The notes: generated from the sequence alone by a model not told the origin. Positions 1 through 52,900 are shown, counted from the first letter of the whole stretch. The stretch is DNA of 61,574 bases, filler included, from Hausera hauseri (GCA_046269625.1; 12 parts of 12 records of this genome joined end to end with filler, not necessarily neighbours in it), one strand, 5' to 3'. Made by a program: numbers and translations.

Positions 1-1
1 T

Positions 2-430
2 GGACAAGCTGCATCTGGATTTTTAGCGATATATTTCTTAATCCAACTAATTAAGGCAGCCATCCAAGCAGTAATAAACGGATATGAAATATTTATATTG
101 ACTGGATTTTCGTGTAAAATTTTGATTGCAATTATCACACCCTTCGGAGAGTTATCACAAAATATACGAAGAAGGCAGATGAAAAACGGATGTAGAAAGT
201 CACGCTGGTTATCATAATCGCAAACGAAAAGGGAGACCTATATTTTTGTACAGGCAGAAGCTCTCGAAATCTAAGACATGAAGAAATAATTCGGATGATG
301 ACAAGCCTAAGGGAGACGAAACCCCCTTAAAAATAGGTAGACATAAGACATACTCCATCGTTAAAGCACCATTGCCCATGTTACCCCATCCGCTCCAGGC
401 TATGAAGACTGCGACAAACGATCAATGAGT
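2..430 (+). pseudogene. TM region and cytoplasmic tail of chuvirus-type class III fusion glycoprotein (env-like)
   Basis: Translates GQAASGFLAIYFLIQLIKAAIQAVINGYEIFILTGFSCKILIAIITPFG...YEDCDKRS, nearly identical to ORF 13196-13663. Confidence 0.85.
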
Positions 431-834
431 TTACATCAGACAGAAATCTATAAGAGAACAATGGGCTTGGAAGACCCTTATAAAGGGACAAAACGGTATG
501 GAATTTTACGGAAAATGTGATACCGACAGCCTATGGATGATTCTAGAATTTTACACTCACCAAGAGAACCTCAAAATACAGAAACCAGACTACCTGTCTG
601 GGGAAATACAAAATTATAGACTTTCCGGAATACAGAACCGCATACTAACAACCGAGAACCATTAATTAGTACTCATGAAATGGAAGAATCGAACGTCGAA
701 AACAATGAATTATATCCTAATGGGGAACTAAGATAACTAACAGGAAATATAATACCCTCCCAGAAATCAGAATAAACGGTCACAAGATATCGGCAACGAA
801 ACGCCCAAAGGTTGCATCAAATTGTTTTGGAACG

Positions 835-2757
835 GTAATCGAAAGACGACCTTCGCCAAAATTACTATTAAATATTGGAAAGTTTATGCCCTAATCGACA
901 CAGGTTCCGAGATGTCTTACATCAAAAACGACTGAATTCCTGAAACGTTAAGTGGACAGTTATATCTGCCATCTACGAAGGATCCAGGAAGCACAGGAGC
1001 TTTAGGCCAAATGTCGAAACCGATGTTTCAATGGAACCCAGAAGATCAAATAGTTGGACAGTTTTTCCGTCATGAATTTGCAGTCATAAAACAATGAAGT
1101 GATTATGTAGTTTTAGGCTGCGACTTATTGAAAAGACTACCAAATGTAGCAATCGACTTGCAAACAGGGAAACTAATAGAGATTAGGACAAATAAATGCG
1201 TAAATACCACCAAAGAGAGGAAATTTGGAGAATTACGGATCCCAGTAGATGAAAATATTCCACCAAGAACAGAAATAACAATCTACGCCCAAATCCAACA
1301 AGATGGTGACCAACCAGTATATTTTGAACCAAAGGAAACATTAGATCCAAATGTAATACTCAGTAATACATTGACGAGAGTACACTCGGGTCGTGTGCCG
1401 GTCAGGATAGCGAATAATGCACCAACCCCAGTCAAGCTTCATGCTTATACTACATTATGGAATACCTATACAGTGTCGTCCATAACCATTGAAGAAAAAC
1501 CTTACAAATACGCCGAATTTCTGCCTGATAGTGAAACTAAGTTTTCAACTGAATCTTACTACCGATTCTATGAATTATTATGCCGTTATAAATCAATAAT
1601 GGCTAAAGACGACGAGCATATTGGTAGAGCAAAAGCTTTGAAATTGACTATTCCGCTTAAGAAAAAGCCTGGTACAAATGAGGAGACAGATCTTGAAGAT
1701 CAAAAAATTCCGAAATGGTATCCTCCGCCACATTAATTAAGACCCGAGATAACAAAAGAAGTCAAACAGATACTTAAAGCCGATATAATTCTGACCAGCT
1801 ATAGATCTTGGTATTCACCAATTCATATGGTTAAAAAAAGGTACTACAAAATATCGATAACCTTATGATGAAAGATTCCTTTCCGTTACCGTCAGTAAAA
1901 GAAGCTTTAGATAGGCTCTCAGGAACAAAATGGTTTACTACTCTGGACTTACAGTCTGAATATTAACAAGTGGAAATCGATGATAAAGATCGCTATAAAA
2001 CCGCGTCTAAAACGCAAGATGGTGTCTATGAATTTAATGTCATGCCATTTGGTATTACCACTGAACCAGCTATTTTTACAAGAATGATGAATAAAATGTT
2101 GATAGGTCAAGACCATGCATTTGCATACTTATATGATGTAATGATAGTGTCCAAAAGAGAAGAGAAACATTTAAAAGATATTGAGCATACATTAATGAGA
2201 TTAGAGCACGAGGATTAAAATTGCACCCAAAAAAATGTAAATGGGCCGAGAATGCAGTATCCTACCTTGGTCACATAGTTGGAAAAAGAGGGTCGAATCC
2301 AGATAAATCATTATTGAACAAGATGTCAGATTGCATGGAGCCGCAAAATCAGAAAGAGTTAAGACACTGGCTAGATTTATGTGGATATTACGCCATCTAT
2401 GTGACAGACAATTCGAAAATAAATGCACCTTTATATCGTCTACTTAAGAAAGGAATTAAACGGAAATGGACAGACGTCGAACAAAAGGCTTCCGATGAAA
2501 TGAATAAAATTTTAGCAAGCGAACCAGTCTTACGATACCATTCATAATTAAGGCAGATTCCAGTAAAGAAGGCATTGGATACGAATTAGCTCAGAAACGA
2601 AAGGATGATGAGTTGGAGCACCCAATCGCTTATGGAGTACGATCCTTGGAAAAGGCCGAGAAATTATTCCGTTACTGAATTAGAAATCTTATACGTTAAA
2701 GAAGCAATTCGACACTTCAACGTTTGTGTACGGACAGAAAATCATAACTGTTACTGA
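835..2757 (+). pseudogene. pol: Gypsy pol: aspartic protease, beta-rich spacer, reverse transcriptase, partial RNase H
   Basis: LIDTG protease motif; ORFs 1128-1736, 1970-2218, 2221-2547; catalytic YLDD degraded to YLYD; apparent deletion at about 2757 removes the RH end and the IN Zn finger. Confidence 0.9.
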
Positions 2758-3560
2758 CTTGTATCGATCGACTAACTTTATCCAATTGGTAGCGATAACC
2801 GATCAAAGAGCAGAAACTTTGGCAGAAGCTGTAGTAAGAAGAAGAATTTGTCGGTATGTGCCCCCAAATCAAATAGTGACAGATCGAGGAAGAAATTTTA
2901 CTAGCGAACTGTTTGAGAAAATTTCTAAAATAATTGAGATTGAGCGGTTAACTACAACCGCATACCATCCTCAATGTAATGGAATGGTTAAGCGAATAAA
3001 TGCAACTGTCATACGCATATTATCCACAGTAGTAGCCAAGGACCAAAAAGATTGAAACGAATTTCTAGAAGGAACTCAATTTGCCATTAATACAACACTA
3101 CATCCAGCGACAAGATTTCCACCATTCTTCATGATGTATGAACGTGAAGCTGCGTTACCAACAGATTTAGGGATGACGCCATACATTCTCAATCCCGAAG
3201 ATTTAGAACAGAATTTTGCAGAAGTGATACAGATGCGATTACAAAAATGCTGGAAAATCGCCAAAGAAATGCTTCGGAATATCATGAGTAGTTTAAAAGG
3301 CAATATGAAAAGAAAGCAAAACCACGCGATTTAGAACAAGGAAATTGGATTTATGTACATTACCTAGTAGCTAAGAAAGGTACGTCGTTAAAACTGACTC
3401 GTACAGGCAGAGGACCGTGCGAAGTTACTAAAGTTACGCTAACTACGGCGTACATCAACAAGAATGGAAAAGAAGAGGTTGTACCAGCACAAAGAGTCGT
3501 TAAGACAGATATACGACCCAATAAACGTTACAATTTACGACAACGCGAAACAAAAACTTC
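2758..3560 (+). pseudogene. Gypsy integrase core and C-terminal GPY/F-type domain
   Basis: PNQIVTDRGRNFTS, TTAYHPQCNGMVKRIN, GPCEVTKV, RYNLRQR. Confidence 0.9.
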
Positions 3561-4154
3561 TTCAATAATTACTAGACTGATCTCATACGTTCAAACAGTT
3601 TTAACAATGTCGTTAATTGCTTTGTATATCCCAAAAGCACAAACTCAATGGTAGGACGATAAAGCTACGCTAGGAGACGTATATGGAAATCGGAAGAATG
3701 GATTAACGCCGAAAACCATTATAACGGAAAATAAACCAACTGCTGAAGAGATCCAAAAACAAGAAGACATTATTCTGTTACAATCAATGAAGGCTCATTA
3801 CTTTTCGCCCGACTCTGTGTGCGTTGGATTTAAAACCTGGAGACCGCATCAAGATTTCGGAAGATTTCAAGTTGTACTATACGATGTAACAACAAAAGAA
3901 GTGAAACACTGATTTTAAACCCGGAGATTATACACAGTGCTAAGACAGATTATGGAAACATCTACATCCTTACTTATCGACTACACTTACCAGACTCATC
4001 GGAAGTCTATATCGAAGTAAACCCACAACTTCAGTTAGTTATTCTTATTTGAACCAGATGATTCAAAGTGAAACTCGACGAAATACTACAATCCACCGAA
4101 TCAAATATAAGGCTATTGGATGAAAATATCAAAGGGATCTCAGTAAATAAAGAA
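3561..4154 (+). pseudogene. Signal-peptide-led ectodomain in frame with integrase; truncated by the contig end
   Basis: After RYNLRQR the IN frame reads IITRLISYVQTVLTMSLIALYIPKAQTQW* then ...SMKAHYFSPDSVCVGF...FQVVLYDV, and after a shift TDYGNIYILTYRL. Confidence 0.6.
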
Positions 4155-4254: not shown

Positions 4255-4262
4255 AAGAACTT

Positions 4263-4845
4263 ATGTACCCTGATAAATATCAAACCTCTTCCACTGACAC
4301 TGATAAAGTAAAATTTAACCCAACATCCTCAGATCTCAATGGGATGGCACAAAATATTAAGAAAACCACTTTCCCACATCCCTCAGAATCTAATATTCAG
4401 GAATTGCTTTATCCCGACGCACAACCATCGTCATATCATGATGAAATGTTTGAAACTGACAAAGGAATAGCCACATTATCTCATCCATCAGCATCAACTG
4501 TACAAGACATTTTGTATCATGGTGACGATCATCCAATACCTATTGATACTCAACCAAAACCTGAAGTATTATTCGGACATCCCTCTCAATCAACTATTGA
4601 AAAGTTTCTCTATTCAACTAGCATTGAAACACCCCCATGCACTTAAAAGAAGATAACGTTAAGAATAATAGTGCACAACGACATCCGTCTGAATCGACAA
4701 TTCAGGAATCACTTTATTCTACCCGTGTTCAATCTCCACAGTTGGATGGAACGTTAACAAAATTCAAGAATATTAATAGCCATAGCCATTCGTCATCGTC
4801 CACTATTGAGCAATCCATGTATTCAGATTCTCAAGAATCCCCACT
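4263..4845 (+). pseudogene. Protein with five HPS-x-S-(T/N)-(I/V)-(Q/E)-xx-(L/M)-Y repeats; frameshifted near 4640
   Basis: HPSESNIQELLY, HPSASTVQDILY, HPSQSTIEKFLY, HPSESTIQESLY, HSSSSTIEQSMY across ORFs 4263-4646 and 4637-4990. Confidence 0.65.
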
Positions 4846-5111
4846 GCGAAACGATTTAATCCAATGGGCTCTTAAAAAATTTGTTAGTATGACTAATGGC
4901 GAAATGTTGCAACTAACAGATGCCAATCCGGAACTCAAATTAAGCGGAGTGTGGTCTAGTAAATGCAATATATTCAATTCGTTCCTATGATAAATTTCAT
5001 TCTACTGATTCGGGAGATATGGAAAAGCAGACACTTACCATAATAACGTCGTATTAAATCAGTGTTTTGCCATTTACATTTTGATCATCTGTTTTAGGTT
5101 GTTTCATTATA

Positions 5112-5830
5112 ATGGACCTACATGGAAAAATTGTTCTTATGATTTGGGCATTATTTCGAATTACTCTTAAATCTATTGAGGCAATCGAGCGAACCGTAGT
5201 TGAACGTGGCTATGACACTATAAATTTTATTGTTTCCACTGCTCAATCAGAAAGGCTTCCATGGGTTAGGAAACAGACCCTTATTGTGCTGGCAAATATT
5301 GCTACAAATGCTCATTATAGAAAAAAAGATATTGGACAATGAATATTTATTGGAAAAGATTAAGTTGTCTGCTAAATCATCAAATTATCAATTAAAAATG
5401 GCTGCCGTTCCTGTCGCATTCTACATAATGAAAACAAATTCCTCAGATTATTGTGGAGATCTTTCAAATCTGGAGGACGACTTCAGAATCGAGTATAAAG
5501 AGTTATGGGATATTTTTAAATCAGATTCCAAGCTTATTTCCTCTTTATATCATAATAGACAATTTCAACTAGATATCAGACTTTGGAATATTTCCATCTC
5601 AGACAAAGTCATCATCGAACGAAGAACAAGCTTTGTTTGAATTGCTTCATATAATAAAAAATTTATCATCTCATAATTGTGATGATATAGCGGAGAACAG
5701 GAAATGTTCTTTCTATCAACCCAATTCACAACTGGTCTATTGTGATTTGTTCCAACCGTATCTTGTGGCATTCACCGATTGCGTATCCGTCCATCCGATG
5801 AGTCATTCGATAGAAAGTCAATTCGTTGGA
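5112..5830 (+). pseudogene. Degraded host-like coding fragments: ARM-repeat-like segment followed by a degenerate B-box-like Zn finger
   Basis: VRKQTLIVLANIATN...KIKLSAKSSNYQLKMAAV resembles ARM helices; CSFYQP...VYCDLFQPYLV..DC...HP resembles a B-box1 with ligands lost; frameshifts present. Confidence 0.35.
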
Positions 5831-5935
5831 AAGACTCAAAAGGGCCACAGCCAAAGTAATTTTAATTGGATTATAATTGGACATTCTTCTCTACTCACTA
5901 CGCTACCAATGAATTGTCTGATTGAGGGACCGAGC

Positions 5936-7050
5936 ATGCCCGCCTCCACTGCACCGCATCCCTTATCCCTGTTTGCCTTTTCCAATAATGTACACCTCTA
6001 TACTTTCAGTGCACTAGAGGAACTTTACACTGTCTTTACAGACATTTTTCCCTCTTGCTTCACCATATTTTTATTTGTCGCATCATGGCTCTATACTTAA
6101 CGTTTATGACCAACTTTCTTCCTTTTCCTCCCCAATCATCCACCTCACTCCACTTTCGCCTACGGGGTGGATCGGACCCCGATCCTTCTTATGCTGAAAA
6201 CTCCACCAAGACCAGATCTGGTCGTCGTCCTGCTGAACCTATATCATCAGCCTCTCGTAACCTTCCTTGCACAGATATTTTCCTTGACAAAACTAATTCA
6301 AGTCGAACCTGCCTACAATTTCATTTGCAATGGCTTAAAGCCAATCATATTACCGATTCTTTCTTGCGTGCGAACAGCTTGTTGCTTCTTCCAGCAAATA
6401 TCAAGCAGCAAATTAATAATATTGCCGATATATTCACCTCCTCAAATCCATATGACAAGCTCTATGAATCAGTACTACATAGTACTGACCCTTCCATTGA
6501 CAGCATAATACAGAAATACTTTAATGAACATGCTGTAGAAACTCAAAAGCCGTCTGATTTTCTTAAAACCGCAATTTCTCAACTGAGTTCCTTAGGCGTC
6601 ACTCCTACAAACAATGCCGATCATCCTCGGCGGTATTTTCTTTCTTCCTTACCCACTTCCATCAGAGCATTGCTCACTGTCGTAGACATTTCAACGGCAC
6701 TTGCAAAGCTCGCCTTATTGGCAGATAAAAGTTTTGACATCTTACAATCTAACAACTCACAACAATTCGACACACGATTACAGCCCAACTTAGTGATTTA
6801 TCTGTGCCTTGGAGAAGCGAAAACCGTGTTTCGCGCGATTGTAGTTTTTCCAGGCATTCTTATCGATCCAAATCTCAAGATGGAAGAATAATTTGTTTCT
6901 ATCACAACAAATTCGGCAGAGACGCAAGGAAGTGTCTTTTGGGCTGTCGATTTTACGACGAAGGTTATGCAGTAGACAGCCCAATCTGCATTTATCACAC
7001 AAAGTATCAGTCCAAAGCTAGGTCGTGTGTGCCAGGATAGAAATATTATA
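5936..7050 (+). pseudogene. gag: UBL-Gag: ubiquitin-like domain (5936-6171, ends LHFRLRGG) fused to CsRn1-type Gag
   Basis: ATG 5936 MPASTAPHPLSLFAFSNNVHLYTF..., then after frameshifts FYLSHHGSILNVYDQLSSF and LHFRLRGG|SDPDPS. Aligns with the intact UBL frame at 57913-58140. Confidence 0.8.
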
Positions 7051-7199
7051 AAAAGAATTCTAGTTTTCTCCATCTTCTTCGCCTTCTCGCTCTTATCATT
7101 CCTCTTCTTTTTCCCAACAAACCTCAAAAAACTAACAACGTCGCCAGGTGCCACGTCACATTCTGGTATAGCCAATACCGCTGAATTGTCTGGCCGTCT

Positions 7200-10100
7200 T
7201 GACACCGCCTCTGCAGTTTTTCTGTTAAAAGCTGCATCGCTCCCCAACAGTGCTTCACACATCGACTTCTTCATCGATTTAGGAGCTGCCTTTTCGCTGC
7301 TTCCTTTGTCCTTCACTGCGACATCCACTATATCTTCTTCTCCACCGCTTTTCATTGCCAGTGGTCAACTGTTGCACATCGCAGATACCACGGAACTTAT
7401 TTTCACATTCGCCAACTGGCCAGATAAGTTTGTCTGGTAATTCCACGTGGCTAATATTAAATCCTCCATAATTTGTCGCACCATCCACTGTCGCTCAGAT
7501 TTTCTGGCCGCACATGATCTTCTAGTTGACTGCAAGTATCGCTGTCTGGTGCGCAAAAACTCCGTCGTGGATGCTAACAAATATCTACCAAACAGCCCAG
7601 TAAAAACTCCAACGTTTTCGGCTGTCAATTCGCGTGTGACTGTGAAATCTTGTTTGTCGGCTAATAACGGTACAGTTAGTAATTCATCCATTTCTGCCAT
7701 CATGTAAAACGCATCTAAGTCGGTTTTAAAACAGCCAAGTATACGAAGTGTCGATGGTGACAGTTATGGTAGTTCTTTACCAATACCATCCACTGTCGCT
7801 TCTAGTGATAAGCTTCAATCATTGTCATCGCGGGATTCCATTTTCAAATCCTTTATCACAATTTCTTGCTTCCGCACACTCAAAAAGGACATCAACTTCA
7901 AACCACCTTCTACAACTTATTACCACAAAGTAACCGAATACCAAAGACCTATCAGACAAAAGGTCAGACCATTGTCACCTCGCAGGGGAAAAGCAGTTGA
8001 ATCAGAGTTTAATGAACTCGAAAAGGCTTGCATTATTCGATGATCAAAGTCACCATGGGCATCACCATTGCATGTAGTAACAAAGAAAGATGGCACCTAC
8101 AGACCATGTGGCAACTATCGGCAGTTAAACAACCTAACAGCTCTGGATGCTTACCCTTTACCTCTCATAAAGGACATTCTGCACAGTCTTACCAATACTA
8201 ACACGTACTCCACAATTGACTTTCATAAATCTTATCATCACATTCCGGTTGCACCTGATGATATTGCAAAAACTGCTGTTATTACTCCATTTGGCATCTA
8301 TGAATATATCTTTATGCCATTTGGTTTACGTAGCGCTTCCCAAACTTTTCAGCGACACATTGATACCGTTCTCTCAGACCTTAACTTTGCTCATCCATAC
8401 ATTGACGACGTATTAATTGCCTCCACATCTGTTAAACAACATCAAAAACACTTTCGTATTATCTTTCACATACTACATCACAGCAATTTGCAAGTCATTT
8501 TCTCCAAGTGTCATTTCTTTCAAAAACGTGTTAATTTCCTAGGCCACATGATCACTCCTCATGTCCACTCTCCACAACAGGATCGACTACAACAACTAAA
8601 AAACGTAACGCTACCAAAGACTACTACGGATATGAGAAGTTTATAGGCACACTCCACTTCATCCACAAATAAGTACTGCATTGTTCTGAGCTCACAGCAC
8701 CTTTCGCACATCTATCTTCGGGAAAAACGAGGCAGTACATCCATTGAACTCCTTATTTAATCAACAAATTCGATGACCTACGCGAAGGCCTAAAACCGTC
8801 GAAATACTAGACTATCCAAAGCCCAAGGCAGATCTTTTACTTACTACCCATGCCTCTACCACTGCTACCGGTGCAGTACTACACCAGATCTCTAATGGCG
8901 TCGACGAACCATTAGAATTTTACTCCAGGAAAATTACACAACCCGAAAGCCGTTACTCAACGTTTGACCGTGAGTTACTCGCCATAGTTCTGGCAGTAAA
9001 ACATTTCAAACACCTACACCTCTCTCGTCCATTTGTCATTCAAACTGATCGCAAGCCTCTCCTGCATATCATATCATTAAAACAGCCATCACCGAGGCAA
9101 GAACGACATATATCATACCTGTCTACATTTAGTTTTGTTTTAGAATACACCTCAGGCACAGACAATTTGGTAGCAGATTTTCTTTCGAGGTCGGTTGGCT
9201 CCATTACAGTTGAGCCGATTTTCTCATCCGAAGTCTTAAAGGCCAATCAATTGTTTGCTAACTTCTTTAGCTCTTTCAAATTCTTCGAAATCATTGATGT
9301 TATTGCTTTTGATACGTTGAATTCCGGTAATAAAAAAATCATTCTAACTCCACCTTTACAAAAGCCAGCCTTTATTCACGCGCATTCACTCCATCATCCG
9401 GGTTCGAAAGCAACCTTTCGCCCACCTCAATTAATTCGCAAAGATGTACAGGGCTGGATTAAGGAATGCGTAGCCTGTCAAAAATACAAAATCATCAAAC
9501 GCCTTAAACCGCCGCTTTACCGTTTCCTCTGTACATCGCGTTTTCTTACAGTTCGTCTTGATCTCGTTGGCCCTTAACCTTCTGATAACGGATATCAATA
9601 TATCCTTACTACAATGGATCGTGATTCTCGCTGGCCTGAAGCGTTCCTCTCCGTTCAACGAACAGTGATTCAGTAGCCGATGCATTTATAAAAATCTGGA
9701 TCAGTCCTTTTGGTTCCCCACGTTACGTAATAATGAATCAAGGTCTACAATTTGAGTCGAAACTCTTCAAGTCACTTATCAAACACTTGGGGATATCCAA
9801 TTTTCATATAACACCATATCATCCTCAAGAAAATGGCCTCGTTGAAAGTTTCCATTGAACAATGAAAATTTCTCTAAAAATCGTGGCTGACAATCATTGT
9901 AATTGGATGTCCATTCTACCATTCGTTCTATTAGGGTGGCGCAACACACCCTCAACCAATACCGGTTGTGCTCCAGCCGAGGCACTCTTTGGGAGTCCAA
10001 TTCGGGCCTTATTTGAACTTTCTGATCTCGATGACAACCCCACAGATGAAAACATTCGTGCAGCACAATCTCATTTTGTCGAGGTCAGCTCAGACTTTTT

Positions 10101-10320
10101 CTGCCGTCTCTTCAACAATAATAAATCGTATATTCCGAAGGATTTATACAAAACCAAGTTTGTGTGGCTGAAGGATCAATCGCCTTCGGGTTTTAGACCT
10201 CAATATGTTGGTCCATACAAACTGCTGAATATTTCATCTCATACAGCTACCATCTTACACCAGGATAAACCTTAAAACGTTCATATTTCGAGTATGAAGC
10301 CCGCTTTCTTCATTGATGAC
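7200..10320 (+). pseudogene. pol: Gypsy pol (PR-RT-RH-IN), disrupted
   Basis: ORFs 7027-7440, 8068-8646 (YIDD), 9167-9577, 9862-10275. Confidence 0.93.
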
Positions 10321-10848
10321 AATCCGGATGCCAACTTTACCTCCAATTCAAATTCATCTCCTACTCCTGGTCTATCCTCAAACTTTCTCCACGACTTTGC
10401 TCCGTTGCAGCAAATTTTTTTTTCTGTCACACTCAATCGTCACCTTCCACTTCGTCTCCCTTCCTCTTATCATCTTCGCCACCTTTTTTACCACCATTAC
10501 GTACATCGACTGTTTCATCACCTTCAATTGCATCGCCTTTTTGCTTGACTCATTTTCTTTATCACACTCATCATCTTCAATATAAGCAATATCACACATT
10601 GAACCATATAATTACACAAAACTTCCATCACAAAATGTCACTCAATAGCCCAGCACAAATCAATAGAGTAATGCACGAAGAGTGACATTTAGTACCCACA
10701 GCAAAGAAAAGTACTTTAATGGTACACAATGCCTGACACATACCAAAACCGAATAGGCACTAAACATTGTTCCTTTGTTACTTCATTGTTTTCATTTTCA
10801 TCATCCTTTTCATTCATTTTTACCTTTACATAGTTTCTCATCTTCCAC

Positions 10849-10897
10849 AAGGAGGTGATGTGGTGCCGCAGTCGTGGACACAAAGCGTGTCCCCACC
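10849..10897 (+). promoter_or_regulatory. Polypurine tract and start of the 3' LTR (only about 40 nt recognisable)
   Basis: AAGGAGGTGA followed by TGTGGTGCC; same arrangement as GGAGGGTGA-TGTAGTGC at 18766-18782. Confidence 0.7.
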
Positions 10898-11389
10898 AAA
10901 ATGCTGATGGAATTATTCCTTCTCGTAATTTAGTATTATGTAGATCTACAATCCACGAATGCCAATGGCTGACAGAATTTTCCTGATATCTCCGCATATT
11001 GGCAGGTAAAATCGCAACATGCACCAATAAAAAGTAATGTTTGTCGAAACTCAGATGGAAATTTTTAACAAACGGCATATTGAGACCGAGATAATCCAAT
11101 TTTGATGAAACGGACAATCAAGTTCATTCAGCATATTTATAGCTTCCTCACCGATCTCATGCGTTGCATCATCATCATTAATTCGAATAATTCTATGTTC
11201 TACTGCATGTTGATTTCTAACACTTTTCTTGTCATTCATCTCACAATCCGAATTAATATACACAACGTTGGACACGTATAATCCACTGGNNNNNNNNNNN
11301 NNNNNNNNNNNNNNNNNNNNNNNNNNNNNNNNNTTAATTAATTAANNNNNNNNNNNNNNNNNNNNNNNNNNNNNNNNNNNNNNNNNNNN

Positions 11390-12840
11390 ACTGCGTTCTG
11401 CGCCCATTTACATTTCTTTGGATTTAGTTTCAATCCTGCTTGTTCTAGTCGCATGAGCGTATCTTCGATGTCCTTTAAGTGTTCTTCTTCTGTTTTTGAT
11501 GCTATCATCACGTCATCTAAGTACGCGAATGCATGATAAAGTTTCATAAGCATCTTATTTATCATCCTAGTAAAAATACCAGGTTCTGTGGTGATGTCAA
11601 AAGGCATAATATTGAATTCGTACACGCCATCGTGCGTTTTGGTCTCCGTCTTATATCGGTTTTCTTCTTCGATTTCCATTCTCCAGTATCCCGATTGTAA
11701 GTCCAGAGTGGTAAACTATTTTGTTCCTGATAGTCTATCTAAAGCTTCTTTTACTGATGGTAGTGGGAACGAATCTTTCATCATCAGCGTGTTTAATACT
11801 CAATAATCTATACAAAATCGATGCTTTGTAGTTCCTTTCTTTTTAACCATAAGTATAGGTGAGTACCATGACCGGTAACCAGGTCGAATTATATCGGCCT
11901 TTAACATTCGTTCTACCTCTTTAGTTATTTCTGGTCTCAGTGATTGAGGAGGCAGATACCATTTAGGAATTTTTTGTTCTTCTAGATCGAATTTGTCGTT
12001 AGAATCCGGTTTTGTCCTTAATGGAATTGTTAATCTCAAGGTTTTTGCTCGACCTATGTCTTCCTCGTTTTGTGCGATCATGGCACTGTATTTACATAAT
12101 AATTCGTAAAACTTGCAATAAGCCTCAGGAGAGAACTTTGTATCAACGTGAGGTGGAAATTCGGCACACTTGTATGGTTTTTCTTCTATTGTTACTGCTG
12201 ATACTCTGCAAGTGTGACCTAAGGTAATGTTAGCGTGCAGTCTGACGGAAATTGGGGCATTGTTCACCAATCTAACAGGTATTCGTCCCGTCACTACTCA
12301 GCATAAAATATTGATAAACATAAGGTTTGGATCGATATTTTCTTGAGGTTTAAAGTATACTGGCAGATCTTCGTCCTGTTGAATCTGTGCAAAAATTATC
12401 ATTTTAGTCCTGGGCGGAATATCTTCGTCTACTGGAATCCATACTTCGCCTGATTTCTTCTCTTTTATTACTTTTGTCCCTTTTATTGATTCGAGTTCAA
12501 TTAATTTTCCGTTATGCATATCGATTGCTAGGCCTGGTATTTGTTTCAATATATCGCAACCTAATACTACATCATCCCTTAATTGGTCCATTATCGCAAA
12601 TTCATGTTGAAGTGCTTGACTCATCATATAAATGATAGGAGTCCACTTAAATTTTGGTTTCGATATCTGTCCAAAAGCTCCTACGCTACCCGGATCCGAG
12701 GATGAAGGTGGGCACAACTGGTTCCGTAATGTCCCTGGTATGGATTCATACTTTAAAAATGATTTTTTGATCCTGTATCAATTAAAGCGTATACTTCCCA
12801 ATATTCAATGTATACTTTTGCAAAAGGTCTACCTTCTACT
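11390..12840 (-). pseudogene. pol: Gypsy pol: protease and RT (truncated by the contig end)
   Basis: WEVYALIDTGS, VVLGCDIL, SWYSPILMVKKK..RFCIDY, HAFAYLDDVMI. Confidence 0.92.
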
Positions 12841-13195
12841 ACTGTTCCGTAATAATTTGATACTGCTTTCGGCTGCTTAATGGTAGAAATTTTGTGCCCA
12901 TTTATGGTTATTTCCGGCGATGAAACGATATTTTCTGTTAGTTTCCTTAATTATCCTCTAGGGTATAAATTATTAGTCGCCGTCTGATTAACACGATCGT
13001 CGATGAGTGGTTCTTGCGATAGTATACCGGAGATTGAACATAGTTTCGGATTTTCCCAGATGGTTTGACTATTATCCCCTGATCGTTTTTTGTAAGTCCT
13101 TGGTTGATGACATTCATTTTCCGTAGTACTCAATAATGTTTTGTTTTTTCGTAAAGGTCTTTATAGTCAATAGGTCTTTGATAAACCTCTGATTT

Positions 13196-15242
13196 TTATG
13201 ACGTGATTGATCTTTTATCACAGTCTTCGTATACTGGTGCGGTTGGCGGCATAATAGGTAATGAGGCGTTAATCACTGAATACATCTTGTGTATCTTACC
13301 TCTGGAATTTCCTTCTCCTCCCTTAAGCTTGTCATCATGTGAATCATTCTTTCTTGTTACTGTTTTCTTATTTTCTCGTTTATACAAAACTGATGGTCTT
13401 CCTCCGTGTTTGCGATCATAGTATTTGATGTGGCGTTCTACGTCATTTTTCCATCGATTTTCTTCATAGGCCTTAAGCATCTTCCCAAACGGTGTGATAA
13501 TGGCAGTTAAAACTTTGCAAGAGAATCCTGTTAACGTGAATATTTCATATCCGTTTATAATGGCTTGAATTACTGCTTTGATTAACTGGACTAAAAAGTA
13601 GATAGCTAGAAATCCAAATGCGGCTTGTCCGAAAATTAAAAATCTCCCCCAAATCTTATACAATATTTCTGAAGTTACTCTTTATTAGTGATTAGCGCCG
13701 AGTAACGACTCCAATTTCGCTTGAAAGCGAGTGTCATCCATGACCATTGACATGGCCCGATTCAGTTCATAAGTTCGCTGTCGCGGAAATGCTAAAAATT
13801 GCCTAAAAGTTTCTGTCTTTTGGCCTACAAATTCCTTTATTAGCTGTATCTTCGAATTTATCTTCCGATAATCCTATGATTAGATTTGTCCCCGTTAGTT
13901 TACTAGGGGCCGCGGCCGTACCTTCATTTGGTAGACTTATCCGGTCGGTTCCACTGTGTCTAAACATTGGTGCCCACAGACTCGTCTTGCATTCCTTCAG
14001 TATTGTTGGTTCAGTCGAATTTGCCAATAATACTCTGGTGAGTGGCATTTCTAGCCTTGGTATATTCTCGTAAATGACCGGTAATTCTTGCATTCATCTT
14101 TTTCCTCTATGTTGATCGGCACGTCTTTTTTTCACATTCGTAAATTAATAGGACTTCTCCGGTAACCCGTCCAAAAACACCTTCTTTCATTGGTATAATC
14201 GGTGATGCCAATTTTGGGTTGGCATAAATTAAAGCCAGCTTGGTTCTCATGACTTCAGTTTCTAATCTGCAATCATTTGTTATCATTTGTAATATAGTTC
14301 CGCTATTCCGGTCTACCCTTTGTAATAGAAATATTTGTCTAGGTTTTTGAGGTAATCCTCGATCCGCACACCTTGTGTTTTTAAATCATACGTTTTCATA
14401 TCCATTTTAGTTTTCGCTACAAAAAATGCTTCGTAGTTAGTGGCATACATAACTACATCGCAGCGTGATAACATATCCTTTCCAATAAATTTTAACCCGT
14501 GCACATTTGATATTAATATCGTCGGTGTGGATTGTTCTATTACATCTTCCCTTGATCTGGTATTAGCATGTAATTTGCTCGAATAACGCTTTCCAGTGGT
14601 CTCATTAAATTTTAATTCTTTGATTTTGATAAAATTGCAATCCTTTTTAGAGGGTGGATTCCATACGATAACCGAACTTGGGAACGTGCAAGCACCATCA
14701 TGAATATGACATTTCTGATTTTTGGTGATTAGTTTGGTAAGGCTATGAAACATCGCTATTAATGATCTTAACTCGGTTTCGTAAAAATCTACGACTACTA
14801 TTCCTCCTTCTATTCCATTCCCTACATCATATACTCCTCCGACACAATAACCGTTGTGCATGTTCCATTTTCCCACTACCACTTTGTAGGCTCTAATTAT
14901 TTTTCATTCTTGGGCTTCCAATTGCCTGTCCACGTTCATTGGTATCAATTGTGTAATAGGTTTGATTATTGACGAATGGCCGTGAATGCTACCACAATGA
15001 AATATGCTGCGGGATCTACGTATCGTACATTCTGTTGCATCCATTGCGATTAACTCACGTTGTTGATATAGTATATATTTTTTCTCTATTGTCTGGAGCT
15101 TGTGGGGCCTCGCATCCTCACATGCTTCCAAGTCCATCAAGGAATATTTCTGTCCCACCTTGAATTTGTCACAGTCGTCTATTGTGACTGCTCCCATCTG
15201 CTTCACTAACATCATTATTATTAGTAGATTGATTAACCAATT
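13196..15242 (-). pseudogene. env: Chuvirus-type class III viral fusion glycoprotein (env-like)
   Basis: Signal NWLINLLIIMMLVKQMGA, then IDDC..YSLMDLEAC, ILYQQ, TECTIRRSRSIFHCGSIHGHSSI, GYCVGG, CHIHDGAC..VWNP..DC, NDCRLETEVMRTKLAL, VTGEVLLIYEC, QELPVIY, IWGRFLIFGQAAFGFLAIY..IINGY. This motif order is the one I recognise from chuvirus-derived glycoproteins. Confidence 0.85.
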
Positions 15243-15905
15243 TGATTCGTTTCCTTTCCTCGAAGAGATGTTTCGTACTATGTCCTCTAAGTTATTGATC
15301 CTTTTCGCATTGTCCTCTTTTTCGAATGGTTTAGCCCATTTTATTTCTTTAGGTACCCTTCTCGTCGCTTTCCTAGCTAACCAGATTGTCTTGTCGAACT
15401 CATTCTCTCGGAGAGGATTAGTTTTTACAGCTAAGTATATCAAAACTTTCCTTAATTCTTCCATCGTATTATCCATCATGATTCTACCAATTACTGTTTC
15501 TTCAATGAGAGTACTTTTAGATAATTTGAATCGCGATGTTTTCATTGTCCGCGCTATATTATATATTAGTCTTTCTTTTTCAGACAATGTATCACCTTGT
15601 AGTCCGGTATAATTGACTATTCTTATTAAATCTTTCATTAGTTCAACTAATTCTTCGTTATCTGAGCTCGGCGTGGGTACTGACAATAGTCTTAGTTCTC
15701 TGATCAAATCCGCATTATAGTCCACTTCTTTTATTGTCCTCAGTCTTCCGACCGGTCGTTTCGGTTTCGTTGACTGTAAGGTTTCACTTATAGGTACTAG
15801 ATTTTTATCGTATTGTGTTTTGTCATCATCCGTTTGCAAATATTCAAAGTACATTGCGGCGTCCTGAATCCCCATAATTCTTCCAACGCAATGTTCTGTA
15901 TGCAC
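15243..15905 (-). CDS. Unknown charged, helical domain in frame upstream of the glycoprotein signal peptide (possible Gag/matrix-like part)
   Basis: First about 220 aa of ORF 14904-15905, continuous with the signal peptide; no Zn knuckle visible. Confidence 0.5.
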
Positions 15906-16067
15906 CTTCCTTATGGCTTCGTCTTTGGTTTACTCACTAGCGATTATTGCTATTATTTGATTCTCTTNNNNNNNNNNNNNNNNNNNNNNNNNNNNNNNNN
16001 NNNNNNNNNNNTTAATTAATTAANNNNNNNNNNNNNNNNNNNNNNNNNNNNNNNNNNNNNNNNNNNN

Positions 16068-18895
16068 GCATACCATCAGATACCGGTAGCACCAGATGAC
16101 ATAGAAAAAACTGCCGTAACTACTCCTTTTGGCCTCTACGAATACCTATTTATGCCATTCGGTTTACGGAATGCTGCACAAACTTTTCAGAGGCACATCG
16201 ATTCAATCCTTGCAGATTTCTCGTTTGCACGGCCTTATATCGAAGATATTCTAATCGTTTCGTCTTCAGCCAAACAGCATGAAAAACACCTTCGCGCAAT
16301 ATTCCAACGCCTTCACCACCATAACCTACAGATTAACTTCGACAAACGCAACTTTTTCAAGAAACGCATTAATTTCTTAGGTCACTTCATCACACCAGAC
16401 GGTCATTCTCTACAATCAGACCGAATCGAAGCCCTTAAAAACATACAATTACCACGTACAACCACCGAAATGAGTAGCTTCCTTGGCACATTACACTTCG
16501 TGCATAAATACGTCCCGTACTGCTCAGAATTAACGGCTCCGTTCGCACACCTAAGCGTCGGTAAAAAACATCAGCCAATTTAGTGGACACCTGAATTGGT
16601 TGATAAATTCGACAGGCTAAGTGAAGGCCTCAAAAGTGTTGATATTCTTGCCTTTCCCAAGCCTGATGCAGAGCTCATCCTCACCACAGATGTGTCAACC
16701 ACTGCTGTAGGCGCTGTACTTCACCAGATCTACAAGGTAGAAAACCAACCCTTGGAATTCTTTTATCGCAAACTAACAATACCTGAAACAAAATATTCCA
16801 CGTTTGATCGAGAACTATTGTCAATCGTGCTCGCTCTAAAGCATTTTTCACACCTACTTGTCGCTCGCCATTTCACTTTGCAAACTGATCATAAGCCTTT
16901 ACTTAACATCATGACCATGAAACACTCTTCCACACGCCAAGAACGCCAAATATCATATTTGTCGACATTTAATTTCGATATTAAACATATAAACGGAGTT
17001 AACAATTTAGTTGCTGATTTTTTATCTAGGTCGGTTAGTTCGATAAGTTTTTCTCCCATTCTTACGCAAGAACAACTTCAACAGAACCAGCCACCTCCAG
17101 ACATGCTTAAGTCTTTTAAATCTTGCACAATTGTTGACAGCGTGGCTTTGGACACATCCAAATTAGGTCATTCAGTAATCATTCTAGCACCTTCCTTGCA
17201 CAGACAAGCATTTCGTCATGTACATTCACTACACCATCCTGGTGCTAAAGCCACTTTTCGTCTCCTCCATCGACAAGTAATGTGGCCATCAATGCGTTCC
17301 GATGTGCAGGCATGAGTTAAGGAGTGTGTGGCATGCCAAAAATACAAAACAACTAAGCATTTAAAGTCACGACTGTTCCACTTTCCCTGCACATCGCGTT
17401 TTCAGTCCATGCATATCGACATCGTTGGCCCTCTTCCTCCTGACAACGGTCATCAAATCATCTTCACCCTGATGGACCGTTCCTCGCGATGGCCAGAAGC
17501 CATCTCTCTGCGGAGCACAAACACCGACACCATAGCTGACGTTTTCATTCGCACATGGATTAGCATGTTTGGATCACCTCGTTTCATCATCACGGACCAG
17601 GGTCCACAGTTTGAATCCAACTTGTTCAAATTCTTTGTTAACCGACTGAGGATCCACCACATTCATACTACGCCTTATCACCCCCAATCGAATGGCCTCC
17701 TAGAACGTTTCCACCGTGCATTGAAAACGTTACTACGCATTCTCGCAGAGTCCAACAGTAGTTGGACCAATTTTCTTCCGTTCGTTCTGCTTGGCTGGAG
17801 GAACACTCCGTCAACTTCTACAATATGCTCGCCTAGTGAAGCATTATTCGGAGCTCCTGTCCGATCATTATTTTAACTAACCGCCCTAGACGACACTACC
17901 ACAGATGAGACTATACGGGCGGCGCAAAATCACTTCGTCAAAGTCAGCAAAGACTCGTTTTGCAGGATACTTCACAAAGATAAAACATACCTACCTGAAG
18001 ATTTGTACACTGCTAAATTGGTATTGCTGAAGAATCAAGCCCCTTGCGGTTTCCAGCCACGGTATCTAAGGCCCTATAAACTTATACAGCTCCACTCGCA
18101 TAACGCTATCATATCCAAAGACGGTAAAGACTGCACAGTACATTACCAACCTAAAGCCAGCTTTCCTTATCGACGACACTTTACCACCTGACACGCCAGC
18201 TTCCTTTCTTACTCCTCCACTCCCTGCTATCCCTACATCTATTACTATACCACTTCCACTTCCCTTTTCTGCGCCTAGTCTTGCTTCTTCATTGTCTACA
18301 CCTTTAACTTTTATTACTACCAATCTTCCTATCTCTACCACTCCTTCTGTATCATCTTCCTAGCCCACTCTTTCACTTAACACAATTCCAATATCTACTT
18401 CAACCTTTTCTACTCTTCCTTTATCCACCACTAAACTTTCCATTACTCCATCGTCTCCTAACACTTCTCAATATCTTTAACCCTCCGTCTTTAACACCCA
18501 CTCTTCCCCCTACACCTTCTTCACCTTCTTCATCTTCGCACAACAACACATACACCAAAACTTACCAATTTTTTCCCCAATCCCAATCTCTGCAAACAAA
18601 CACACTGCACAAACACACAACACGCAAAGTCACATTCAGCCAATATGGTAGGGAAAAATCAGTCGAAGGTATTCAACACCTTATACACACTAAGCTCAGC
18701 TAACACACACTTCGTTTTGCGCTTTTTTCTCTTTCTTTTACCCTTTACAGTTCCAGCTTTGCCACGGAGGGTGATGTAGTGCAGGCGCCGACTGTTGCCC
18801 TTTGGCCCATTTCGTTGGGCACGGCCAGGTTTTTCGCTGCCTGCGCGTCAGACGCATAGGCGGGCCCCGATTTTCTGCCTCGAGGCCGCACCATA
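16068..18895 (+). mobile_element. CsRn1-like Ty3/Gypsy 3' half: RT end, RNase H, integrase, PPT, 3' LTR
   Basis: MPFGLRNAAQTFQR; TTDVS..YSTFDRELL..TDHKPL; HHPG..CQ; HIDIVGP..TDQGPQFES..YHPQSNGLLERFHR. Confidence 0.95.
18775..18895 (+). repeat. Putative short (about 120 bp) GC-rich 3' LTR
   Basis: Follows PPT GGAGGGTGA; imperfect inverted termini TGTAGTGC...GCACCATA; abrupt return to AT-rich DNA afterwards. Confidence 0.6.
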
Positions 18896-19003
18896 CGATT
18901 GCGTCGTTAGACAGTCTTTACAAAACTATTGTTTTATAATTGCATGATAATCAATATTTGCTTAAAGATATTGAACTGAAAAGTATCGATACTAGTTCAA
19001 CAA

Positions 19004-20200
19004 ATGCGGATGTTTTACTGCGAACTAAGCGATATCGAATTATGCCATTGGATATTCGTTTCTCATCGCAAAACGATAGTATCCGAAGATGATATGGAAA
19101 AGGGATTCATCAATAAACGTTCCTTCAATCATATATCGACAAGACCATTTCAAGACCTTGGTATTTTAATGATGTTCAATCAGAAGGGCCATTCGTTGTG
19201 TGATCGATACCGCTACCATGCTTTCATTATCTATTGTCGATCAGATCGGATATGGGTAAAAGGATTGGGAAAACGTTTAGAATCACCGCCGTTGGAGTAC
19301 AAATGCTGCATTAAAACTCGAGATTATATTGCAGCACATTCGGAAATTCAGAAGATTAAGGATTTCATTAAAAATCTGTGGCCAATTTTGGAGAATCTTT
19401 TACTGAATGTGATTCATCCGAATTATCAAATAAACTCAAAGGTGACCGCAATTCGACTGGAAGATGTTTCCAGCGACAATCATCTGCCAGATATTCTTCG
19501 TAGTGTGAACATTTTGTATGCATTTGATGATCAATTCTGGCAGCTGCTTCCGATGACCTTACGGAAGGATTCGACTGCTACATATGGGTTAAGTAGTACC
19601 CCTTGGTATTTGATTTCACAAACAACTCCTCTTGTCAATGGTCAGATTCTTTATCCAATCAAAGTACAAATCGAAGGATTTTTTCGTCCTCATTATCTTA
19701 TCCAGATCGAGCCATCTCCTCACTCTGGAACATTACAGGAAAATGCCATCAGTAAACTTATAACAGATTATCTCTGAACACATTCTTGATTCTCTGCATT
19801 TGGTCGATTCCAATTTGACTTTGACTGATTCCGGTTTACCACATATTTATAGTTTTGTTTGCTGTATTTTGGCTTATTGGATTCCTTTCAGTCATTCTAA
19901 AATTGCCAGATTCTAAATCATATACATTGCCAATCCGTCCGTGCGCATTCATTCTACCAGCTATATTTCTCGTATGGCTGTTTATTTATCGTTGGAAATC
20001 TATGTAATGGAATAAGGAACAGAAAAGCCGACGGATATTTAATTTAACAATGTCACTAAATGCTAAACTATTTCAAATGAACGAAAGCATTATCGTTACA
20101 TCACAACGAAACAGAAAATGCAACATGATAGTTATATATGTCGTGTATTACTCCATATTTCAGAGCTCGGAAACAGTACATTACATATTGAATACTGTAA
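19004..20200 (+). pseudogene. TIR-domain protein followed by two predicted TM helices; intronless and disrupted
   Basis: YHAFIIYCRSDRIWVKGLGKRLESPPLEYKCCIKTRDY matches TIR box1/box2 (YDAFISY..D..WV...LE....C...RDF). Another frame at 19831-20004 gives IFIVLFAVFWLIGFLSVIL and AFILPAIFLVWLFIY. Confidence 0.75.
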
Positions 20201-20894
20201 AAAAGCGGAAATTTCCCAAATGAAGATGCTCGAGGCATTTATACTATCGAATCAAAACTGTCAATTTACTGTAATCGGTTTGCCTCTGCGATCAGTTGTG
20301 ACTAATGTTTTTTATTTCCTTGATGTTCTCATGTTCTTTCTCATTGCCTGTGCCGATAGTCTATTCTAAATACCGATCACCCATTGTCTGAACCGGTCTC
20401 GTCAAAGAACCCCTCTGGAATTAATAATCGAGGCTCAATGGGATCTTTATGATGAGTGCACTAAAGTCGATCACATTCTCTCACCGCATATCAATCATAA
20501 AAGTATACATTTGTTTGAATATTGTAAATATTAATTGAAAGATTGAGAATTTTTTAAATATATGGATTTTGTCAACCATTTTCCTTTTTAGATTATCAAA
20601 TATTAATTTTTTTCTGAATTTGTGCTCTNNNNNNNNNNNNNNNNNNNNNNNNNNNNNNNNNNNNNNNNNNNNTTAATTAATTAANNNNNNNNNNNNNNNN
20701 NNNNNNNNNNNNNNNNNNNNNNNNNNNNCCAGAAATCACTGGTAATGATACCCCTGACTGATTAAGGATTTTGGTTCATTTCCCCTGATCTCTGTGTAGC
20801 ATTGTTATGCATGTCTGGAAATAAAAACAAAAATGAGTAATCTGCCCAGAAAATCACATTTTTGTCAATTAATTTTATTGTGTTACTTCCACAG

Positions 20895-26852: not shown

Positions 26853-29800
26853 CTAATGTCCATACGCCCAACTCTTATTTCGCCCCACCCACTTTCGCTT
26901 ATTATCGTTACATGACAAAGCGACTTTCGCACTATTTATTGTGTACAGCTGGTGTTCAGTTGATCAGATGATCGTTTGAGACAACAGCCACTGATTGTCC
27001 TCCTTGCGCTGCTGCTGCTGCTTCATATATACGGCGATAATTACCGTGACCGATTGCCGTCTGTGTTAGCTGGACTCATTTTGCACGCATTTTCGGTCCA
27101 CAGCTCGTCAGAAGACTATAGCACTTTGGGCGTAGCAATATCCATTCCCGATACCGGACACGACCTTCACTTTCATCCTTGAAGCAGTCTATTTTATTTG
27201 TGATCTCGCTGCTGTACAAGGGATGATCCGGTGTATAGTTGGACGTGTCCAGTAATCCATCTGACTGCAGTAGCTGTTCGTGATTGACGTTTTTCAGCCA
27301 CAGGAAAAAACTCTGTTCCCGGCAATTATGTAAATATTGCAGCCGTCAAACATTTGCCGGTAACGTACCAATTCGCGTTACTTCAGCTCATACATCGGCA
27401 ACTTGCTTAGGTCCAATACCACTTGTCCGATGTAACTTGGCCGGTCTAGAACGACTTCTCTGTTTAACAGCACCGCAACCAATCTATCGGCAATGTGCAT
27501 TGACCGCCGAAATTGTGCCTTGCAGGTATACGTAACCAGACGCTTTTCCTAATTATATAGGTGTACATTGAGCCGCTTTTTCGGATTCTTCACTGTTTTT
27601 CCGTACAGGGAATTGTTTTTCAGCTTGTAGTAGTCCTTTTCAAACTTTTTACAAGCTTCGGCTCGTTTCTCCGAATTTCCATCTATGTACGCCTTGAATA
27701 TGGGAGCCTCAGCAAATAGAATTGTAAGATGCATCTGTGTGACGCGAACTGTAGCAGACGCAAATGGACCACGTAATTCAGCTTCGGTTCATGCGTCATG
27801 AGCAGTTGATTCACTTTTGAACCTGGCGGACATTGGTTAAATGGTGCGACCGGTAAATCGTTTAAAACCATGCAGCTCATCTGGCATCACGAGATCGACT
27901 TCCATCAGGTATCCGACTGATTCTGCCGTGTCTGCTCGTAGGTTGACCATTATGTTGTCCAAATCTTGTATGTAGACTACACATTCAAATGAACCGTACG
28001 GCAAGGGTTGCGAAAGCGCCCAGCCGTACAGGTTATTAATATCAATATACAGCAGTGATGTGGTAACGGCAGCATTGACCTGATGCTTGTTGACAAATGT
28101 CATGCCACCGTGAATACCAACATAAAACAGCCGGTACATTTCCGGATCTTGCAGCAGCTCAATGTTTCGATCCAGTGACATTAGAGCTGACGCCCAACTC
28201 ATTCCCGGTATGGAATAAAAGTTGAGTGGCGCCAACCTATCTTCTGCCAGCGCTTTGGTACGAAATGCTTTGCACACGTCGGCTAATAAGTACACGTTCA
28301 GTTTGAGATACTGGATCATGTAATCCAACATGTTTCTACAGCCCAGTTCTGTCCAAGATTCTTGTGCTCTCCGATATTCATCTTCTGTGATACCTGTCCA
28401 TCGTGGCGGTAATTCCTCTGCTGTCCGGAGTCGATCATATGGTGTTGCAAAGTCATATAGAAATATGCCTTTGCTGCGTGCAATATGTGTAGGAAACTGC
28501 GTCAGTGCTATCGGCACATCTGGCAAGGCATTTACCAGCTTTGTTAATGATTCATAGAGAAATTGTAATGAATGAAGGAAGCGTACCTGGTATCGGTTTA
28601 CTCGTGCCGACAGCGATATATATTTCTCCATTGTCATTGGGATTATGGACAGTTCTCAGTGCGGAAAGGCGTTAATGGCCCATTTGAGAATATGGTTACA
28701 GTCATACCCTTGGAAATTATGAAAGCTCATCGGCAGGAATGGTCGCACTCGCCTTGCTAAATTGCATGAATTGCATGCTGCTTCCAAGTATCGACCGGTG
28801 AAATGGTCGTGATCCGGTACGAGCCGTTTCTGTGCATAAAACGGTATTATTTTGTGCTACAGATAGCATTCATCGGTGACAGCGAAAAGCAACGGTTGAT
28901 ATTCGTCTTCCTAAATGAATCGTTTATTGCAAATGTTGTGATACCACGGCGCGATTTCCGTTTCCACTATGGTTTGCAACTGCTGCAGGAAATTACGTAC
29001 ACAGATCCAACCATGGAAAACGTAATACTGCGGTTGTTCTGCGGCTTTTATCGGTACTAGCAACATAACGACGGCAATTGGAACGTGATTTGATCGCGTA
29101 CATTGAGCCATGGTAGAATTGCTTCAATATCGGCATACACCACATATGCAGGACTGTCCGTTTTAGACCAATCACTGAATCTGAGCGTCCCTTTGACGGG
29201 CATGACGTACATTGTTGTCCCTGATGCGTTTTGTCTGTATAGTGTGACACGTTTCTCATACGTTGTTTCTGATCTGAATCCATGCAGACATGCAGAACAC
29301 CATTTGCATCGTATTCGCTTTTTGATGAACTGGTCATACTCCATGTTCAACAGTCTATCCAGATTTGTCACTGCCACGTAATGAAATTATTCGGCCTGCT
29401 CTAACAACAATATATTTACCGAGCGTCCATTTGGGTTCCGACTGCGACAAATTATGTCCACATGGGGGTTCTTATAAATTTCTTTGTCTTCCGGTATTTC
29501 AACTATTGTGTTGTACCGGAAAACGTTGATTGACAGCGTCGGATTACGCCGTTCAAAAGCCGGAATGGTTTTGAGTTTTATCGGCATCCAGCATTCATCA
29601 AATTGCATTTCGGAAAATTACTGCCGATACTGATTTGGACGATTTGCATGATATTCGTTCACTTCGCTCTACTTCAATACAGCCAGAATACTGTACAAAA
29701 AACAGTATTCGTCACCAGTATTTTGTACATTCACTACCGCAAGAGACTGCTTTTGAGATGCAGGTGTCGATGTGAATGACCGTCCAGACAAATATACCAC

Positions 29801-38050: not shown

Positions 38051-38923
38051 TTNNNNNNNNNNTCTTGTGAAACATTACCATACGTAGATTTGCTCATTAT
38101 TCCAGCAACCACCGAAAAATGTTCTCGCTCACCACCCGAGCTCATTGATTGTATTATAACCTTCTTGCTTTTCCTGCAAGTATTCTTTCCTCTCCACCAT
38201 ACACAAAGTCTACATTTAGCTCTACCATGGAAGGTCTTTGTAGGCTCATCTCTGATAGGTTTTAATTACGTTTTGAGAAAATTCTTTCACAGACGAAATA
38301 CTGACGGTTTAAAAGATTCTTAATAGCACAGAAATATTAAACTCTTTTATAGATTCAGTTTGTACACCCACCCGAGCGAATCGTCTTCACCTTCATACGC
38401 CTTCAGACGTCGACTTGAATTTTTTGAAAGAAAGCGGCTGTCATCTTGACGTCATCAGCTCTTCCATACAGTTTATCTTGGACCGTCACCGGGAACGGCC
38501 ACAGAAGCTTTCTCTGTTCCACGTACAATGGTTGTTCAGCTGTCATTTTCTCAGTACTGATTGGGGAGCGAATCTAAAAATGATCAGTGAACAATTTGGT
38601 TATTTAAGTGATCACATTTGCAGCATTCAACTGTGTTTGCTGAACATATGTTTGTTTACCGAATTTGTTCATTGATAAAAATCATCCATTTTTTTTTTCA
38701 AATACCTCTGGATTTGCAGATAAGCAAATTGTTGGTGCATCGTATCCAAACCGTTGTCCATTTTGGAATTTCTGCCTTTAGCTGATGAAATGCCTTAAAT
38801 TATTATCTGTTAGTTCAAGCCAACATAACAACTCACCAGGCGTTTTCTGACGCTTTCCAAAATTACATTCTGTTTAAAAAAACAAAACGTTCCAGGCGTT
38901 TCCAGAACTTTCTCATTTTCTTT

Positions 38924-49290: not shown

Positions 49291-49340
49291 GCTACACTAT
49301 TTTAGAGATTATCGCTTTAATAACTATTATAACTTTCCTC

Positions 49341-52770: not shown

Positions 52771-52900
52771 TTGATCATGCCAGGGTTCTTGTGAGTTTTG
52801 TGGAAGATATGAAGAATATAGTCAATAGTATCAATGTAACAATTGTTAACAAAATTGCTGTAGTCATAAGTTTTATGTGCAGGTCGTTCAAGGTAGTCCA

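Follow-up and report, generated by a model that had tools for sequence, protein, structure and literature searches.

A 61,574-nt stretch of Hausera hauseri DNA (GCA_046269625.1; hereafter the window), made of 12 short, repeat-rich contigs with N spacers between them, holds two copies of a retrotransposon that places an envelope glycoprotein (Env) ahead of its protease (PR) and reverse transcriptase (RT). Our reading, to which we give a probability of roughly 80%, is that both are decayed members of a Ty3/gypsy family of high copy number with a class III Env before PR-RT, and that its intact ancestor likely encoded one Gag-accessory-Env-PR-RT-RNase H (RH)-integrase (IN) polyprotein, as in the Burro elements of planarians. 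We infer the single polyprotein from the two broken copies, from further copies in sequencing run X1 and from intact relatives; gene order, fold class, protein-level constraint on the Env-PR linker and single open reading frames (ORFs) in relatives were observed directly.

Six-frame translation of the contig at 11390-15967 (copy A, minus strand) gave a leader, a signal-peptide-like stretch, a glycoprotein matching PF24664, a transmembrane (TM) segment, a tail, a linker, PR and RT. An earlier interpretation made without database searches (the sequence-only reading) had proposed this order, which the profile matches also bear out, and its recurrence on the contig at 1-2200. There lies a second copy (copy B, 1-4154, plus strand), which begins in the Env TM, continues through PR, RT, RH and IN, and is 68% identical to copy A over copy B 2-517 and 704-2258. 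Copy B thus holds the Pol order PR-RT-RH-IN of Ty3/gypsy (Metaviridae); copy A stops within RT. Neither contig contains repeats of long terminal repeat (LTR) size, the longest direct repeats being 29-31 nt, and both end inside the element. The family is abundant and old: 11,463 X1 contigs, aligned to copy A at 80% likeness, covered all 30 of its bins, and most were less than 95% alike to it, so the copies are old. As X1 is possibly the window's own source, it supplies extra copies and not an independent sample.

The putative internal signal peptide of copy A (15189-15242; Kyte-Doolittle hydropathy 1.95) sits where relatives carry theirs. It is followed by the ectodomain (13643-15188) and by a region with the TM helix (approximately 13642-13580) and a second hydrophobic stretch (together 13484-13642), so that signal peptide, ectodomain and C-terminal TM, the layout of a class III fusogen, are all present. 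The ectodomain is interrupted by stops at 14904-14906 and 13682-13687 and by three frame changes near 14300, 14100 and 13815. Of the five Env pieces scanned, three matched PF24664; their profile positions follow the expected order, 8-106, 331-386 and 532-622 of 653 (E 1.2e-7, 8.3e-5 and 2.4e-14, the last in the TM region). We modelled the leader together with the N-terminal half of Env (to 14316) from a 30-row alignment, with X at one stop; the predicted local distance difference test score (pLDDT) was approximately 90 across the Env part and 30-65, mostly below 65, across the leader. The best Foldseek matches of the Env model were chuvirus-like glycoproteins (E 9.8e-21), and glycoprotein B (gB) of herpes simplex virus 1 (HSV-1) was also matched (Foldseek E 3.5e-8; VIA Z 8.6, root-mean-square deviation 6.0, 206 residues aligned). 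By profile and by the modelled fold of its N-terminal half, Env is a class III fusogen of the chuvirus G and herpes gB type, as the sequence-only reading had held.

Between the end of the TM region and the DTG motif of PR lie approximately 700 nt (~230 codons), of which the linker makes up about 410 nt; tail and linker occupy 12813-13483 in copy A, and the TM, tail and linker of copy B occupy 1-864. The linker motifs that had been quoted as similar between the copies (IWEN/VWGN, EPLI and N.LYP.G.LR.LT.NI) were all found, and the pattern of substitution agrees with them. In gap-free blocks of the alignment of the two copies, changes at codon positions 1/2/3 numbered 6/4/24 in the TM, 32/24/49 in the tail, 10/11/29 in the distal linker, 67/50/179 in PR and spacer and 16/9/54 in RT, an excess at the third position in all five regions tested (P 0.003 and 0.0003 for the tail and linker regions). 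The ratio of nonsynonymous to synonymous differences per site (pN/pS) was 0.11, 0.43, 0.30, 0.26 and 0.15, respectively, which makes the Env TM as constrained as RT. The indel-rich middle of the linker gave a protein alignment in just one frame (4 of 2,000 shuffles, compared with 1,243 and 922 of 2,000 in the other frames). On these sequence comparisons, the linker is a region that evolved as protein.

Copy A is interrupted over tail and linker by stops at 13196-13198, 13130-13132 and 12951-12953 and by a frame change near 13115, and copy B stays in a single frame over 365-759, where three point stops interrupt it (518-520, 617-619 and 734-736). Two of the latter oppose sense codons in copy A; the third, 518-520, opposes an indel, so the two copies alone leave room for a shared stop. 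We therefore looked at X1, in which 434 contigs lie on copy B 470-780. The stop was absent from 741.5 of 741.6, 235 of 246 and 352 of 403 depth units at the three codons, that is, from 87-100% of the depth at each, and indels there all stayed below 20%. Thus, copy B's three linker stops are not common to the other X1 copies, which speaks against a conserved stop between env and PR. One X1 contig of 687 nt, reaching from the tail to the protease, was identical to copy A there. Near 13115 no in-register slippery heptamer was seen by eye and copy B stays in one frame, so a programmed -1 frameshift at that place was rejected. Just ahead of the true protease, at 12917-12880 (minus strand) and 760-800 (plus strand), the segments PEITINGHKI and PEIRINGHKI resemble a relic of a duplicated protease start.

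Downstream of the linker, PR of copy A (12497-12812; LIDTG at 12785-12771) has a frame change directly after the active site, and RT (11390-11950; RVT_1 E 4.7e-20, YLDD at 11523) has stops at 11800-11802 and 11716-11718 and is cut by the contig end. In copy B, PR (LIDTG at 891), spacer, RT, RH and IN span 865-3560 and are broken; they were traced by Pfam (RT_RNaseH_2, 1.2e-8; rve, 3.9e-7) and by tblastn with intact relatives.

Those relatives came from a HMMER search of 1.84 billion proteins, which returned 36 hits, all on the Env part. Fourteen long hits were scanned: five read Env-PR-RT-RH (four of them with IN as well), four Env-PR and five Env only, and none had Pol before Env; P0038 (4,844 aa) is a further case. 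Among eight metagenome loci (L001-L008), L001, L002 and L004 each hold one uninterrupted ORF (3,426, 3,703 and 2,693 codons) that runs from Env or Gag through IN. L005 is a broken Env fragment, and L007 and L008, RT-only matches without Env, were dropped as unrelated. No LTR pair was found on L001-L006, and scans of a viral contig collection gave no relative. In 12 of the 15 relatives whose Env TM was recognised by pattern (which missed L004), one ORF leads from the TM to the DTG motif. Gag capsid and/or CCHC knuckles share Env's ORF in P0002, P0008, P0011, P0012, P0021, L002 and L004, and in P0021, L002 and L004 a single ORF holds Gag, Env and Pol. The RT of copy A is 42-52% identical to those of nine Env-first relatives, whereas five further Gypsy RTs from the window reach 27-35%. 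Two of the loci, L001 (10617-12104) and L002 (12085-13470), also carry a separate downstream ORF with a DEDD exonuclease match (PF00929, E 1.4e-5 and 1.1e-3).

With Gag in the same ORF of intact relatives, the idea of an env-pol polyprotein standing apart from Gag found no support. The leader of copy A, a helical region at 15243-15967, is cut by the contig end and has an in-frame stop at 15930-15932. A capsid profile built from six relatives matched neither leader nor linker, only another window contig, and the leader was accordingly ruled out as a Gag capsid; the earlier claim that neither gag nor LTR lies between env and PR stands as far as this profile and the repeat search reach. In seven relatives Gag precedes the mature Env in the same ORF by 219-810 residues. 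Copy A holds only 259 codons there and its leader lacks a Gag-profile match; most likely, therefore, the contig breaks off before it reaches Gag, which would by itself explain why none is seen here. From its position, the leader is most likely an accessory region that once separated Env from the Gag nucleocapsid. A Bcl-2-like domain occupies this position in eight relatives, and by eye the leader seemed to fit it. A Bcl-2-like profile aligned to the expected place in the leader at 4.3 bits, which is not significant (36 of 1,000 shuffles and the reversed leader scored as high), and the model is of low confidence. The protein atlas returned unnamed clusters only, at <=0.90, and VIA returned generic helical bundles (Z up to 6.3). 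In P0006, the region ahead of Env (residues 115-295) is unlike all others, with neither capsid nor knuckle: an accessory domain.

Both copies carry P(T/S)AP in the Env tail (PTAP at 13246-13235 in copy A, PSAP at 386-397 in copy B) and, further on, LYP with a leucine four residues later (12968-12960 in copy A, with a stop inside; LYPNGEL at 710-730 in copy B). Among 11 tails of relatives, YPxL or YPx3L occurred in five (shuffle mean 0.42; 0 of 5,000 shuffles) and any Tyr-Pro in ten (shuffle mean 3.2; 0 of 5,000), although these counts overstate significance because the tails are related. In the tails listed, Tyr-Pro lies 30-90 residues before DTG. The pattern [LIMH]YP was chosen after looking, so its presence in 8 of 10 tails is no fair test. 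P(T/S)AP was found in 1 of 11 tails (206 of 5,000 shuffles) and is not family-wide, and PPxY, also in 1 of 11, was at chance level. The same Tyr-Pro could serve as a protease cleavage site or as a sorting signal of the YxxL type. In retroviral Gag, PTAP binds TSG101 and YPXL binds ALIX, according to PMC8952333. Judged by sequence, the P(T/S)AP and Tyr-Pro motifs of the tails may recruit the endosomal sorting complexes required for transport (ESCRT), direct the sorting of Env or be where the protease cuts.

A second membrane module may follow Pol. All seven relatives that extend past IN have a hydrophobic stretch after it, and the post-integrase module of L002 was modelled (pLDDT 58.6) as two domains with best matches to fibronectin type III (FN3; E 5.8e-7). 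At the same place in copy B (3561-3909), a signal-like hydrophobic stretch (3577-3633; hydropathy 1.58) and then a short ORF continue in frame after the end of IN (RYNLR at 3526); this piece showed no significant similarity to the relatives' modules, and the atlas was uninformative. In L001 (4750-5320), a similar signal peptide-ectodomain-TM module is inserted between protease copies ahead of RT.

Several observations weigh against descent from a single Gag-Env-Pol polyprotein. Stops and frame changes are many in both copies, and neither has an open frame. Word-index searches among proteins found no longer close relative of the window family and no intact copy of it; the relatives at hand are distant, their Env being 22-36% identical to that of the window. 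Gag of this family was seen on neither contig, both of which end inside the element. Three of the 15 relatives with a recognised Env TM (P0004, P0026 and L006) do not continue into protease, L006 having a stop after Env and no Pol, and L003 ends in Env, with one stop just before its Env signal peptide. The RT tree, built without named reference Gypsy RTs, did not separate the Env-bearers from the Env-less contig at 31087-35791, which sits at an open fork on a long branch. A quick Env tree, in which the window row had a long branch, was left out of account. Retroviruses make Gag in large excess, and one ORF would yield Gag, Env and Pol at 1:1:1, so that additional control would be needed.

The topology of the proposed ancestral polyprotein suggests how it might have worked. 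The cytosol would be the site of synthesis for Gag and the accessory domain; the internal signal peptide would then direct Env into the endoplasmic reticulum, and cleavage by signal peptidase would split the Gag-accessory half from the Env-Pol half. At the Env TM transfer would halt, and PR-RT-RH-IN would hang from the tail on the cytosolic side. Pol would thereby gather at the sites where Env accumulates, enter budding particles in its company and be released by the protease. Such tethering of Pol by the Env tail would follow from membrane-protein topology and is plausible. A more elaborate version, in which the particle buds as RNA viruses do and not as retroviruses do, is doubtful: ESCRT-recruiting late domains (PTAP/PSAP and LYPx3L) would have moved from Gag to the Env tail, and Pol would form a loop with two anchors, the Env TM and the signal peptide of another membrane protein, of FN3 type and perhaps serving in attachment, until the protease releases it at maturation.

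The same ORF could also have worked with a protease that frees itself during or soon after translation, Pol joining Gag and RNA in the cell and Env being accessory or serving cell-to-cell spread only. We regard this as somewhat unlikely, though worth keeping in mind. An aromatic residue followed by proline is a classic retroviral protease site, and Tyr-Pro stands ahead of DTG in 10 of 11 relative tails; P0038, P0012 and L001, moreover, carry extra protease copies in a row directly after Env. However, retroviral proteases need dimerisation, which is usually reached in the particle, and the Env TM is constrained like RT (pN/pS 0.11 and 0.15).

Were Env and Pol instead made separately, Pol would be kept below Env by some regulated event in the linker: a stop, a frameshift or a splice. 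The frame change of copy A near 13115 adjoins the copy B stop at 518-520, two frames are open over 13129-12954, X1 depth over the linker is low and variable, and splicing would be invisible in DNA. Yet in copy B a single frame covers PSAP as well as LYP, other copies do not share its stop, and 12 of 15 relatives are continuous, which together make this explanation decidedly improbable. An Env from a nested or adjacent element, or a chimeric contig, is barely credible, short and repeat-rich as the contigs are: the same junction occurs in two copies only 68% alike, no LTR-size repeat is present, an X1 contig spans the junction, and Env and RT lead to one set of relatives. As these were found by Env alone yet are nearest in RT, they argue against a nested env, and the membership of Env in the same element as PR-RT is largely confirmed.

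The single polyprotein is not a new arrangement. PMC6431247, published in 2019, describes planarian Burro elements with env in frame between gag and pol. The Burro/GYPSM1 elements described there are giant (over 30 kb) Gypsy-like LTR elements with a dUTPase-like domain between PR and RT, and have an Env with mononegavirus-like glycoprotein matches in frame ahead of PR, as the window element most likely also had. The PR-RT spacer of copy A (12121-12474), at best weakly dUTPase-like, had no Pfam dUTPase match, and a profile of five such spacers searched against PDB sequences gave dUTPase as its sole match at E up to 10, a weak one (E 1.8). In the relatives described above, one ORF holds Gag, CCHC, ubiquitin-like and Bcl-2-like parts upstream of Env, as in Burro/GYPSM1 elements in that account. 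By contrast, the window element has a compact tail and linker (TM to DTG), one protease, and two copies that are both decayed. Likened in this way by published description, the window element appears to work as a Burro element does and is a candidate member of that group.

The gene order recurs in print: GAG-ENV-POL elements with a gB-type ENV are reported from Nematoda, Bryozoa and Platyhelminthes by Chary and Hayashi (PMC13524379), whose supplementary file 1 has 9 rows for flatworms and 10 for bryozoans. These errantiviruses share with the window element the order, an HSV/gB-type ENV within 2 kb upstream of a Gypsy POL and many copies, but they are intact. Compared by eye with six Schmidtea C1a rows of supplementary file 2, the window Env is alike in motif order and cysteines; the nematode rows are far less window-like than the planarian ones. 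The accessible text of PMC13524379 uses neither 'polyprotein' nor 'fused' and does not mention cytoplasmic tail, ESCRT, fibronectin or Bcl-2. Of the proposal that Env precedes PR-RT in one polyprotein, the placement in one element therefore stands and the frame was most likely shared, but its novelty does not, in-frame gag-env-pol having been in print since 2019 (PMC6431247) and the order again in PMC13524379. The window adds one more, decayed, family to a layout known since 2019. Nematode endogenous retroviruses (NERV) reportedly have a continuous gag-env-pro-pol ORF. Their Env lies before Pol (Sacco et al. 2022, as cited in PMC13524379). A chuvirus-like glycoprotein within an LTR element is likewise reported (Dezordi 2020) for the Anakin elements of mosquitoes, which are BEL/Pao whereas the window element is Gypsy.

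The remainder of the window is also rich in mobile elements. Of 23 further ORFs scanned with profiles, 11 matched transposon families (Gypsy Gag/Pol, DNA polymerase B and DDE) and 12 matched nothing. An ordinary Gypsy element at 31087-35791 (plus strand) has a capsid, two CCHC knuckles, PR and RT but lacks an Env in the Gag-PR interval; in RT it is 39-44% identical to the Env-first relatives. Another Gypsy clade is represented by four related Pol copies, at 4255-11289, 16068-20628, 44725-50612 and 55868-61574. A fragment of a protein-primed-type DNA polymerase B (27840-28655, minus strand; PF03175, E 7e-11) is perhaps a Polinton/Maverick piece, and the window's longest open frame (702 codons; 50716-52821, minus strand) has no Pfam match at E 0.001. 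At 38920-39210, a unit of about 62 nt is repeated in tandem in several copies of 91-97% identity.

For this whole kind of element, what matters is by what means one ORF can yield workable proportions of Gag, Env and Pol, and by which route Pol gets into the particle. The tail motifs offer a cheap handle on this question of ratio and packaging, one on which we found no paper in the open-access literature, and the reading in which they act together with a double membrane anchor is, if true, the only part of our account that could be new.

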